10,056 nt of DNA, from positions 1 to 10,056 of the forward strand of contig JBBRAE010000058.1 of the NCBI GenBank assembly GCA_038207085.1, read 5' to 3'. The notes beneath the pieces were generated by a model. The model was not told the DNA's origin, made no database searches, and saw nothing but the letters and a program-made list of their open reading frames with translations. Numbering within the stretch: the first letter of the stretch is position 1; each line of letters opens with the position of its first letter. The DNA is from Armatimonadota bacterium (GTDB lineage: Bacteria > Armatimonadota > UBA5829 > DTLH01). Positions 2,534 to 5,415 of the stretch are shown piece by piece. The position numbers and the translations under genes were made by a program.

Positions 2534-2614
2534 CTAGCCCGCTTTATTCGTGAAGCGAATAAAGCTTTCGCTAACAGAGCATTATTCACGCTACTCGTGA
2601 ATAATGCGGGCTAG
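2534..2614. mobile_element. MITE-like double-hairpin element, copy 1 (73-bp core 2538-2610 plus CTAG direct repeats)
   Basis: CTAG-CCCGCTTTATTCGTGAAGCGAATAAAGCTTTCGCTAACAGAGCATTATTCACGCTACTCGTGAATAATGCGGG-CTAG. The terminal IR CCCGCWTTATTC matches 11/12, and the core is identical to copy 3. Confidence 0.8.
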
Positions 2615-2727
2615 TGGTTCAATTGCCATGCATTACGCCATTCGGGATTCGGAAATCCCGTCTTAGCTTTGGGGTGGCGATTCGGAAATCGCCACCCAAC
2701 AATGGCTGATTTCATGCCAAGTGTTCG
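2615..2727. repeat. REP-like/structured element: two hairpins sharing the apex GATT-CGGA-AATC inside an imperfect outer inverted repeat
   Basis: Hairpins CGGGATT-cgga-AATCCCG (2643-2660) and GGGTGGCGATT-cgga-AATCGCCACCC (2672-2697). The outer IR 2623-2642 vs 2701-2720 matches 15/20. CTAG occurs at 2611-2614 and 2728-2731. Confidence 0.6.
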
Positions 2728-2742
2728 CTAGTCGATTATGAC

Positions 2743-3186
2743 TTACCTTCCGTGCCCCACTCCGGCGTGGCAGAATGTGCAGGGGCGGTCGGGGTCTTGG
2801 ACGACTGCTAGGTGGTTGACCAGGTTTTCGTGGCAGCCGAGACAGTTGTGGTTCAAGATGCGGCGGTTGCTTTCACGGATGCGGATCACGTCCGGGGGGC
2901 CGAAGGTGAAGGCGAACGAATGCCTGTAGCCGTTCACAGCCTTCGACATATATTTCCTGAGCAGGCTGTGAGGGACGTGACAGTCGTTGCAGGTCGCACT
3001 GCGGTGGCTTGACACCTGCCAGCTCCGGTAGTTATCTCGCATGACGTGACAGTTCACGCAGACCTCTGGGTCGTTCAGCATGTAGCTGTAACCCTTGGCG
3101 TACCAGAAGGTAAACAGGCACGAACCGAGAAACGCACCGATCACAATCGCCAATATGGGTCTTCCAACCTCTGCAAACTTCAGCAC
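2743..3186 (-). CDS. nrfH: Cytochrome c nitrite reductase small subunit NrfH (NapC/NirT-family tetraheme quinol dehydrogenase)
   Basis: N-terminal TM helix; four heme motifs CVNCHVM (CxxCHxM typical of NrfH), CNDCH, CLGCH and CTFCH; C-terminal VGH. Start set at GTG 3186 after GAGG, just downstream of the nrfA stop; the 3408 start would overlap nrfA. Confidence 0.93.
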   Translation of the reverse strand: MLKFAEVGRPILAIVIGAFLGSCLFTFWYAKGYSYMLNDPEVCVNCHVMRDNYRSWQVSSHRSATCNDCHVPHSLLRKYMSKAVNGYRHSFAFTFGPPDVIRIRESNRRILNHNCLGCHENLVNHLAVVQDPDRPCTFCHAGVGHGR

Positions 3187-3193
3187 TACAGCC

Positions 3194-4513
3194 TCACTGC
3201 GCTCCGGCACTCTGGCGGGCGACCAAAGCCTTGTAGGCCGCCAGCTCAGCCTGCCGGGCGAAGTCGATTGAATCCCCAAGCATCCGCGCGGCCTCACCAC
3301 CGCTGTGGAAGCCCATGCTGTTCTCTGAGCTGATGAAATCCCACCTGATCTGTGCCTTGCGGTGAAGTCTTCGGGCCGGTTCAAGCTCCGAGTCGGTCGC
3401 ACCGGCACTTCTTGCGAGCTTGACCCCGTCCATCGCGGCCATGATAGCCTTTTCCGAGCGCTGAAGGAGCGAATAGGTGCGGTCCTGAATCTGAATCACC
3501 CGGCTTCGCATTTCGTCCTCGGACTCTCTGTGACACGTGAGGCAGCTTCGCTCGGGTTTTGCGAGCGGAGTGTGAATCCAGTGGTCGGTGATCTTGATCG
3601 AGCCCTCTCGGACGTAGGGCATATGACAGTCCGGGCAACCGACCCCGGAGCGGGCATGGATGCCGGTGGACCAGAGTTCATACTCCGGATGTTGGATCTT
3701 GACCATCGGCGCGCCGGTCTCCCCATGCGTCCAGTCCGAGAACCCAATCTCGTCGTAATAAGCCTCGATATCGTCGACCCGAAGCCCCTTTGACCAGGGA
3801 TAAGTGAGCATCTTGTCGGACTTCTTCCAGTGATACTCGACGTGGCACTGGGCGCAGACGTAGGTGCGCATATCCTGGTGGGTGGCCTTAGAGACGTCGA
3901 TGCCGCGGGACTTCATTGCCCGGACAAACGACGGTCTGGTGACGCGGAGGGCCATCGTGCCAGCCTCGTGGCAGTCGGCACAGGAGATCGAAAACTTGAT
4001 GTTGTGCTTCTTCACAAGCTCTTTGACAGGGGTGTTGTAGAACTCACGCTCGCCGATGGTCTCGAAGAGCCCGGGGTTCTGGCTGCTTTTGCAGGTAAGG
4101 CACGGCCCGGGTTTCTTATCGCCAAGGCGCTTGGTCGCGAGCATATCCTCCACGGCGTGCAGATGCCCGCGCTCCTCACGATATTCGACCGAAAACGGGT
4201 ATCCAGCGAACATTCTGACAAGGCTGGGATACTTGTTCAGCCTGTTAAACGCCTCCGAGCCTCCGTATCGACCGTACTTGCTGTATTCCCTGAACTCGCT
4301 TGTGAGCAGGGTCTTCTGGTAGGCGTCATACTCGCGAGGGAAGTTCTTGCCCCAGACCGCCGGGTCTGGCTCGTTCTTTTTGATCTCAACGACCTGAGGA
4401 AAGACGAGTCTGGCTTCTTGTTTGCGTTCGAAGATGCTCACCAAGAGCAGAAGAACGGCGACCGTCAGCAGAATCGCCCCACCAAGGATGATGAAAAACC
4501 TGTATCGCGCCAC
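3194..4513 (-). CDS. nrfA: Ammonia-forming pentaheme cytochrome c nitrite reductase NrfA (c552)
   Basis: Lys-ligated active-site CLTCK plus CADCH, CAQCH, CPDCH and CLTCH. Also present are the catalytic Arg (EERGH), CAQCHVEY, KIQHPEYE and SENSMGFH, with an N-terminal hydrophobic anchor/signal. GTG 4513 lies 8 nt after AAGGAG. Confidence 0.97.
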   Translation of the reverse strand: MARYRFFIILGGAILLTVAVLLLLVSIFERKQEARLVFPQVVEIKKNEPDPAVWGKNFPREYDAYQKTLLTSEFREYSKYGRYGGSEAFNRLNKYPSLVRMFAGYPFSVEYREERGHLHAVEDMLATKRLGDKKPGPCLTCKSSQNPGLFETIGEREFYNTPVKELVKKHNIKFSISCADCHEAGTMALRVTRPSFVRAMKSRGIDVSKATHQDMRTYVCAQCHVEYHWKKSDKMLTYPWSKGLRVDDIEAYYDEIGFSDWTHGETGAPMVKIQHPEYELWSTGIHARSGVGCPDCHMPYVREGSIKITDHWIHTPLAKPERSCLTCHRESEDEMRSRVIQIQDRTYSLLQRSEKAIMAAMDGVKLARSAGATDSELEPARRLHRKAQIRWDFISSENSMGFHSGGEAARMLGDSIDFARQAELAAYKALVARQSAGAQ

Positions 4514-4549
4514 CAATGATACTCCTTTGTAATACTGTATATCTGAACG

Positions 4550-4577
4550 ATTATACCAGTTTATCAAGCAAACTCAA
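4550..4577 (-). promoter_or_regulatory. Putative sigma70-type promoter of nrfAH
   Basis: Minus strand reads TTGAGT (4577-4572), a 16-nt spacer, then TATAAT (4555-4550) preceded by TGG (extended -10), in an AT-rich stretch. Confidence 0.65.
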
Positions 4578-4657
4578 ATGGTTGAGGTAAGAAAGCAAGA
4601 AGATGATACAGGGGAACCCGCACCGCACTACATCGTTGAATCGAACAAGCGGCAGGT

Positions 4658-4738
4658 CTAGCCCGCTTTATTCGTGAAGCGAATAAAGCTCTCGCTAGCA
4701 AAGCATTATTCACGCTCCTCGTGAATAATGCAGGCTAG
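4658..4738. mobile_element. MITE-like double-hairpin element, copy 2 (core 4662-4734 plus CTAG direct repeats)
   Basis: Same element with 5 substitutions: 3 in the inter-hairpin spacer, 1 in the loop of hairpin 2, and 1 in the terminal GGG (now AGG). Both hairpin stems are intact. Confidence 0.8.
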
Positions 4739-4789
4739 TCGCCTGCCGGATATAGTAACCACAACGCTAGTCACGCCCAGGAAGACGAT

Positions 4790-5137
4790 CTACGCGCGCT
4801 TAGCATCACAGTCTTTGTCGATATCAATAAATGCGCCGAAGCCGACGGTTTCCAGCACGTATTCGGTGTGGGTCCCACGTGTGATCATCAGGCGCAGGCG
4901 CTGGTTGCGGTCGAACATCGCGCGTCCGCATCTGGCGACCGACTGCAAAATGGCTGAATCTATAAAAACCGCTCGACAAAGATCGATGGTCACAGGCAGA
5001 CCGGCGGCGATTGCAGACTCAACTGCGGCGTCGAACTGCGTGGCGACTCGAAGGTCAAGCTCTCCTGACCCGGTCACCACAACTTCGGTGTCCTGCACGG
5101 TAACATCAATGCTTGGACACTCGGTTACTACACTCAT
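4790..5137 (-). CDS. STAS-domain protein / anti-sigma factor antagonist (SpoIIAA/RsbV-like)
   Basis: Contains VVVTGSGELDL, TIDLCRAVFIDSA (conserved phosphorylatable Ser position) and VLETVGF. ATG 5137 lies 7 nt after AGGAG, giving 115 aa. Confidence 0.85.
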   Translation of the reverse strand: MSVVTECPSIDVTVQDTEVVVTGSGELDLRVATQFDAAVESAIAAGLPVTIDLCRAVFIDSAILQSVARCGRAMFDRNQRLRLMITRGTHTEYVLETVGFGAFIDIDKDCDAKRA

Positions 5138-5334
5138 GCCTTGTCTCCTATGCCAACTTTCAGGCCGCAGGTCGGTCTCCGGCACTGGAACTTCATCCCA
5201 CGTCAGCAGACGCACGAACAGCCCAAAATCGGCCGGGGATGCATCGTGCAGCGGCAGAGCAAAAGCTCATCAGCTGCCGCACGAATGCTGTACCCAGTTA
5301 AAGCATGATGCTAAACATCAGTAATGCAGAGCTA

Positions 5335-5415
5335 TTAGCCCGCTTTATTCGTGAAGCGAATAAAGCTTTCGCTAACAGAGCATTATTCACGCTACTCGTG
5401 AATAATGCGGGTTAG
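5335..5415. mobile_element. MITE-like double-hairpin element, copy 3 (core 5339-5411 plus TTAG direct repeats)
   Basis: The core is identical to copy 1 but is flanked by TTAG on both sides. The right TTAG contains the cheB stop codon (TAA at 5414-5412). Confidence 0.82.

Follow-up and report, generated by a model that had tools for sequence, protein, structure and literature searches.

IS1380 elements, piggyBac and the small repeats of bacterial genomes

Insertion sequences (ISs) of the IS1380 family are described as carrying inverted repeats of 13-21 bp and generating direct repeats of 4-5 bp (PMC4133298, PMC3281130). The subject of this work is a 73-bp repeat that occurs three times in a 10,056-nucleotide stretch of an Armatimonadota genome (the window, which is the whole stretch analysed: JBBRAE010000058.1 of GCA_038207085.1, here contig C58 of assembly G000, a 3.35-Mb assembly of 83 contigs with 57% GC). 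We consider it highly probable, from sequence comparison, that this repeat is a non-coding miniature inverted-repeat transposable element (MITE) with IS1380-matching ends, and that its likely mover is a DDE transposase of the IS1380 family acting in trans. It is an abundant, very small MITE of IS1380 type, and as such an added member of an ordinary class of selfish DNA.

The resemblance to IS1380 elements (IS1247, ISPme1, ISPa33, ISPsp9 and ISEcp1; models NF033539 and PF13701) lies in the terminal repeats of about 16 bp and in the 4-bp duplication. The IS1380 elements of related bacteria use the same CTAG, TTAG and CTAA targets, and their ends are alike in up to 16 of 16 bases. The present element differs in length, 73 bp against about 1.6-1.7 kb, in having no transposase, and in its ends, each of which is doubled into a strong hairpin (A at the left, B at the right) and both of which are most like the right-hand ends of the ISs.

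Bacterial MITEs are put at 70-300 bp in one source (PMC3733652) and at about 30-300 bp in another (PMC4133298). Correia/NEMIS, RUP, ERIC, Nezha, TIME and MITEPye1 share with the 73-bp element its small size, non-coding nature, many copies, IS-like terminal repeats, target duplication, stable hairpins and mostly intergenic location. What sets the present family apart is its tie to IS1380, its place at the small end of the size range, the presence of two local hairpins rather than one long stem, and a target site of its own in the middle.

The eukaryotic counterpart of IS1380 is piggyBac (PMC5718144), for which one source gives CCC ends and a specific 4-bp duplication of TTAA type, occasionally TTAG or CTAA (PMC10813416). 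The CCC ends and the 4-bp duplication are common to piggyBac and to the element described here, which is bacterial, targets NTAG (N, any base) and is non-autonomous. Hairpin-intermediate chemistry and precise excision are characteristic of piggyBac. Repetitive extragenic palindromic (REP) sequences, including REPINs and BIMEs, together with the REP-associated tyrosine transposases (RAYTs), are alike in their paired inverted hairpins of 25-30 bp and high intergenic copy number. In the 73-bp element the tetramer is a direct, site-specific duplication instead of an inherited foot, and its copies in this genome do not lie beside RAYT genes.

In the open-access literature that we searched, neither an IS1380-derived MITE nor this family is described, which is weak evidence of novelty, and no paper pairing IS1380 with CTAG was found there. 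MITEs are a familiar class, and the finding changes no textbook. The 132 sites with oriented NTAG nonetheless give a clean, well-sampled picture of the target choice and minimal ends of IS1380, a family whose chemistry is little studied, even with ISEcp1 among its members and piggyBac as its eukaryotic relative. With a natural substrate of 73 bp and intact cognate transposases (loci L049 and L051) at hand, binding and transposition assays are straightforward. The element also alters one gene of a toxin-antitoxin pair, and stop codons are frequent among its landing sites.

Copies, target-site duplication and target choice

Scanning both strands of the assembly gave 220 rows, with many loci counted twice, which reduce to 132 full-length loci; 128 of these are 73 bp long, and the elements total about 10 kb of the genome. 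The original prediction, made from the letters of the window, had taken the flanking tetranucleotide for a target duplication that co-varies from copy to copy and is direct, not inverted. Both points are borne out genome-wide. The left and right 4-mers are identical at 109/132 loci and differ by one mismatch or less at 130/132, where 100,000 shuffles gave chance identity at 47.9 loci on average and at 68 at most. Among the 95 loci with a non-palindromic left 4-mer, the right flank carries a direct repeat in 78 and an inverted one in none; not one of the 220 both-strand rows has a direct repeat of another length (2, 3 or 5-8 bp) at these boundaries. The 12 cores identical to copy 1 of the window are flanked by TTAG (8), CTAG (3) or ATAG (1), and since different 4-mers stand on identical cores, the 4-mer comes from the insertion site and is not inherited from a parent copy.

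An inherited foot would give inverted 4-mers, and their absence, along with the different 4-mers on identical cores, speaks against the reading that the repeat is of REP/REPIN type, namely two inverted REP hairpins with a tetranucleotide foot, spread by a RAYT (a Y1 HUH transposase) with no target duplication. The two inverted hairpins, the more than 100 mostly intergenic copies and the existence of half-elements do recall such repeats, as does one relative, G039, which keeps CTAG on one flank only, much like a REP foot; Y1 transposases, too, are encoded in this genome and in 5/5 relatives searched. However, the element is found at 0/2 Y1 loci of this genome (other palindromes flank both), a collapsed copy lies near only 1/15 Y1 loci of the relatives, and the size of the insertion, discussed below, is exactly 73+4. 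Spread by a RAYT is thus highly unlikely in this genome.

The 109 duplications consist of TTAG (62), CTAG (31), ATAG (6), CTAA (6), GTAG (2) and CTAT (2). The target is therefore NTAG, mostly YTAG (Y, C or T) and sometimes CTAN, so that the YTAG specificity first proposed describes most sites and is too narrow for the rest. It is oriented relative to the element (70 versus 8 asymmetric sites, p = 2e-13), and because 70 of the 78 asymmetric targets lie one way round, the two ends of the element are likely not equivalent. Two MITE families of this genome have CTAG among their main targets, yet the tetramer is under-represented in it (0.44 of the Markov expectation).

Identical members number 13, 12 and 8 in three subfamilies; an identical twin exists for 41/128 copies, and 101/128 lie within two substitutions of another copy. 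Such near-identity points to fairly recent bursts. The recent activity that had been proposed is favored by the twins; on the other side, the assembly has no intact IS1380 transposase and no empty allele was seen at the window sites. None of the contigs of sequencing runs X1 and X2 skips any window copy, which is not evidence either way, as contigs drop rare variants and X1 is possibly the source sample.

Insertions into pre-existing genes and repeats

No same-genus relative of this bacterium was among the 40 genomes searched, and empty sites were therefore sought within the genome itself. At all 132 loci the element and one 4-mer were removed in silico, and the resulting junction was searched in the same genome. 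Junction-spanning matches were found at 20/132 loci, four of which are cited here; self-hits, tandem or nested copies, heptamer runs and weak matches were set aside. Once emptied, the locus at C11:45934 (contig and position) gives a gap-free match to uninterrupted repeat paralogues with 95% identity over 60 nt, and these unfilled paralogues carry a single TTAA. Gap-free matches to an uninterrupted repeat paralogue were likewise obtained for C5:87799 (91% over 66 nt) and C15:45800 (89% over 65 nt).

The fourth locus is C37:2648, where a copy sits inside a toxin gene of the ParE family (PF05016, E 8e-10) downstream of a ribbon-helix-helix antitoxin gene. Removal of 77 bp restores the C-terminus found in 4/4 close homologues from other genomes, while removal of 73 or 81 bp does not. 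This gene and the three repeats above are made whole again by taking out the element with one 4-mer, which marks the 4-mer as a genuine target-site duplication such as the staggered cut of a DDE transposase leaves. The empty sites with a single target that the prediction looked for were found as in-genome equivalents only. In the interrupted gene (C37:2425-2724, L139) the last 14 ParE-family codons are replaced by about 25 element-derived codons, the reading frame closing in the right duplication with its TAG; upstream, the antitoxin gene seems to be intact. At C13:15380 and C1:54078 a copy has landed in the CTAA/CTAG at the middle of another.

Outside this genome, a copy in G005 (L002) separates two genes that on contig C19 of G000 are neighbors with no element between them; the gap is too diverged for the target to be read. 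A metagenome scan gave two matches, both diverged members of the family with flanks not colinear with those in this genome, and three exact 17-mer matches in a viral collection were all due to chance and lacked the element.

IS1380 ends and the candidate mover

The genome carries IS1380 (PF13701) sequence on contigs C75 and C55. The left end of the C75 copy follows CTAG and matches a MITE end at 12/16 bases; a 174-residue IS1380 fragment of this genome scores 140 bits against NF033539, under the cut-off of 180. A search with the C75 fragment brought up 11 further IS1380 loci. Next to IS1380 transposase genes we located 20 ends that share 12-16 of 16 bases with an end of the MITE; CTAG, TTAG or CTAA adjoins 19 of these and TTAA the remaining one, and they lie up- and downstream of the transposase genes, as expected of ends. 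The agreement is closest with the right ends of IS1380 elements in genomes G002 and G007 and at loci L050 and L051 (15-16/16 bases). Hairpin B read from its right end is the right end of the L050 element at 16/16 bases, and the outer arm of hairpin A with the terminal CCC agrees with the right ends in G002 and G007 at 15/16. L051 is a complete element of 1,669 bp between CTAG and CTAG with an intact transposase (NF033539, 357 bits); the L049 transposase, of 453 aa and 81% identical to the fragment in this genome, passes the same cut-off with 365 bits, and the L054 element is likewise bounded by CTAG on both sides.

On this basis the following steps may be proposed. An IS1380 transposase made elsewhere would bind the outer arms of about 16 bp, cut at the terminal CCC and excise the 73-mer, and the ends would then be joined to a 4-nt staggered cut in NTAG, giving the 4-bp duplication. 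The chemistry is probably a cut-and-paste reaction similar to that of piggyBac, by analogy with the latter. The mover itself may now be broken or unassembled. Since the IS1380 copy of this genome is frameshifted, we infer the mover.

YTAG targets are typical of IS5-group elements, and the original prediction had tentatively named both IS1380 and IS5. The MITE reading holds, the repeat being short and non-coding with terminal inverted repeats, a target duplication and ends shared with IS1380; as to the family, the ends and the 4-mers shared with the IS1380 elements of relatives decide for IS1380 and not IS5. A MITE moved by another CTAG-targeting DDE family of IS5/IS701 type, with a coincidental or merely historical likeness to IS1380, would account for the targets, and it would suit a genome with no intact IS1380 gene that does encode an intact 468-aa IS4/IS701-like transposase (PF01609; C48:15060-16747, L016). 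That element, however, has its own terminal repeats, different from those of the MITE, and no MITE-like end beside it. The IS5/IS701/IS110 domains PF13586, PF13546 and PF02371 have 0 matches in the assembly, and a chance likeness has to contend with ends that agree with IS1380 elements at 15-16/16 bases; a mover of IS5/IS701 type is very unlikely. The C48 transposase falls under the cut-off of every NCBIfam transposase model, and its element possibly represents an unclassified IS group.

The family has matches in 10/41 genomes and PF13701 in 9/41, this genome being included in both counts. In two relatives, G008 and G039, there are abundant 72-bp versions that keep hairpin B and have a different second hairpin. 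The flanks of the G008 family co-vary in 21/33 rows (shuffle mean 8.9; 0/20,000 shuffles reach 21); the rows of both genomes come from the best 30 loci per search, and two of the G039 rows are mis-registered.

It is worth gathering here the observations that weigh against movement by an IS1380 transposase. The IS1380 ends were located by a MITE-derived pattern, which biases their similarity scores upward, and the native left end on C75 reaches only the 12/16 bases given above. The C75 copy is frameshifted and runs off its contig, and the C55 copy is a fragment. A read contig spans the C75 frameshift without a gap, at a depth of 13.3 versus 11.9 in the flank (about a single copy), and this gap-free span indicates that the C75 copy is truly broken; an intact IS1380 copy may be present in the genome, unassembled. 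G005, G006, G008 and G039 carry the element family and have no PF13701 match. Among the genomes searched there was no close strain giving a true orthologous empty site. Lastly, the flanks in G039 do not co-vary (7/39 versus a shuffle mean of 6.4), its copies are more diverged, and its right flank is target-like in 30 rows and its left in 17. Age accounts for part of this asymmetry.

In the G039 loci (L089-L118) the right flank is CTAG in 26/39, and drift is seen in the left flank and in the first base; two subfamilies often stand in tandem with one CTAG shared, and this looks like an older family whose duplication signal is lost. Genome G007 has a non-coding element of about 200 bp (L018-L022) with the same IS1380-type ends, CTAG flanks and no terminal hairpins, which from its sequence is a separate and more conventional MITE of IS1380 type. 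At L050 (about 700-1663) the IS is immediately preceded by an IS1380-type end that shares one CTAG with it and has an ordinary methyltransferase-like gene behind it; the gene may be a cassette carried between IS1380 ends.

The three copies in the window

All three cores are 73 bp long and in the same orientation, as had been noted from the letters; copy 1 equals copy 3 in sequence, and copy 2 has 5 substitutions (positions 30, 37, 40, 56 and 71). The features are as follows.

2534-2537, no strand: left target-site duplication of copy 1, CTAG (sequence and genome-wide flank table)
2538-2610, plus strand: MITE copy 1, 73 bp, among 12 identical genome copies (genome-wide scan)
2541-2565, no strand: hairpin A, stem 10 bp, loop 5 nt (repeat search and folding)
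2571-2574, no strand: target site within the element, at its center, CTAA here and CTAG in another subfamily (insertions by other copies)
2579-2607, no strand: hairpin B, stem 12 bp, loop 5 nt (repeat search and folding)
2611-2614, no strand: right duplication of copy 1, CTAG, which doubles as the left flank of an unrelated repeat starting at 2615
4658-4661, no strand: left duplication of copy 2, CTAG
4662-4734, plus strand: MITE copy 2, second subfamily, 13 identical genome copies
4735-4738, no strand: right duplication of copy 2, CTAG
5335-5338, no strand: left duplication of copy 3, TTAG
5339-5411, plus strand: MITE copy 3, identical to copy 1
5412-5415, no strand: right duplication of copy 3, TTAG, with the TAA stop of cheB, left intact, on its minus strand

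The flanking 4-mers are those first reported. The terminal arms 2533-2549 and 2599-2615 are 94% complementary and make up the terminal inverted repeats. The ends had been given as CCCGC...GCGGG, which is correct for copies 1 and 3; the right terminus of copy 2 is GCAGG. The window genes are pilT, a hypothetical gene, nrfH, nrfA, a STAS-domain gene and cheB, and no transposase is among them, as had been stated. Copy 2 sits between the STAS-domain gene and nrfA, and beyond cheB there are more chemotaxis-type genes, judged by their translations. The minus strand of copy 3 resembles integron attC cores; with a span of only 48 bp, flanks that vary with the target in other copies, and chemotaxis neighbors this was rejected by inspection, no integrase search being made.

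The double hairpin

Both hairpins are far more stable than expected by chance (z -5.8 to -8.5; 0/200 shuffles as good in all 6 strand folds). In 40-nt folds the MITE ends reach -9.5 and -12.4 kcal/mol, against -0.1 to -5.0 for the 20 autonomous ends; as the latter fold weakly, the hairpins are a feature of the MITE. Across 12 representatives picked by hand, pairing is seen in 93% of stem cells, versus 28-40% in slid controls, and two-sided changes occur in 7/25 stem pairs; the structure was drawn from the same 12 related sequences, so these figures show conservation, not function.

The inner arms most likely arose, and stay matched, by template switching at the palindrome. Loop A is reversed in 21/128 copies and loop B in about 10, and reversals of this sort would betray strand switching at palindromes, a process able to maintain the pairing of arms in the absence of selection. 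The left end of L055 continues into bases that match a hairpin-B variant in its loop and inner arm (23/26 bases, by eye), a hint that the hairpin grew from a near-palindromic IS end. The inner arms may also be putative extra sites for transposase binding. A bolder proposal makes the double hairpin a working part of the transposon: the inner copies would be extra binding sites for the IS1380 transposase, or a cruciform or single-strand three-way junction would bring together ends that are 73 bp apart, below the persistence length of DNA; at least one lineage, that of G039, with one CTAG kept and the duplication pattern lost, may then have switched to spreading in a different way or come under selection by the host. 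We think this unlikely. If true, a bacterial relative of piggyBac that targets NTAG in one orientation would have a distinct architecture for its ultra-short substrates.

Dozens of half-elements and collapsed forms of 26-35 bp are also found in this genome. The majority stop at the central CTAG/CTAA or at a short repeat inside the element, with direct, inverted or unmatched flanks, and they are read as deletion products rather than as independently mobile. The collapsed forms at C2:80239, C3:78010, C7:65453, C8:37031, C52:10222 and C12:43352 are single, often perfect hairpins with both ends intact; the flanks are direct in some of them and inverted in others.

Genomic placement

Gene positions were taken from a crude caller of open reading frames (at least 120 codons), so the context counts are approximate. 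An overlap of more than 20 bp with a reading frame is seen for 13/132 copies, and the mostly intergenic survival likely reflects selection against insertions into genes. A stop codon lies inside a duplication at 32/132 copies (copy 3 of the window, at cheB, is one of the 32), compared with 15.6% of intergenic YTAG/CTAA sites (p = 0.006).

This modest excess and the conservation of both stems with two-sided changes could be taken to mean that the repeats are a family of structured RNAs or terminators, selected by the host for their effect on the transcript. The copies show no bias to convergent gaps (21/108 versus 254/1,322) or to gene direction (35 same, 30 opposite), and a terminator scan does not list them, all of which argues against a selected terminator role. 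Rfam, where a match had been named in advance as grounds for abandoning the MITE reading, gives none at the copies; its sole match in the window (E up to 1) is a chance MIR399 at 2054-2092. Selection for an RNA would, moreover, leave the duplications unexplained, as well as the insertions that interrupt a gene and other repeats, and is extremely unlikely as the origin of the family. At some sites there may be a secondary RNA effect.

Other repeats in the window

Short tandem runs of a heptamer (CTAATAG/TTAGCTA type) are found at 142-160 of the window and near many copies of the MITE; they provide TTAG targets, and several copies are located within them. At 2058-2088, between the convergent pilT and the hypothetical gene, there is a perfect 15-bp inverted repeat, which is probably a bidirectional terminator. 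The repeat that adjoins copy 1 and shares its CTAG (2615-2727) belongs to a second family, with full copies of about 114 bp and 11-bp terminal repeats starting with TGGGT. Its flanks co-vary as well (CTAG/CTAG or CTAC/CTAC), and in many copies the right part is missing (49 BLAST rows). The palindromes that flank a Y1 transposase gene in G008 (L127) are similar to the two inner hairpins of this family, and by this likeness the second repeat may be a REP-like pair captured within another MITE.

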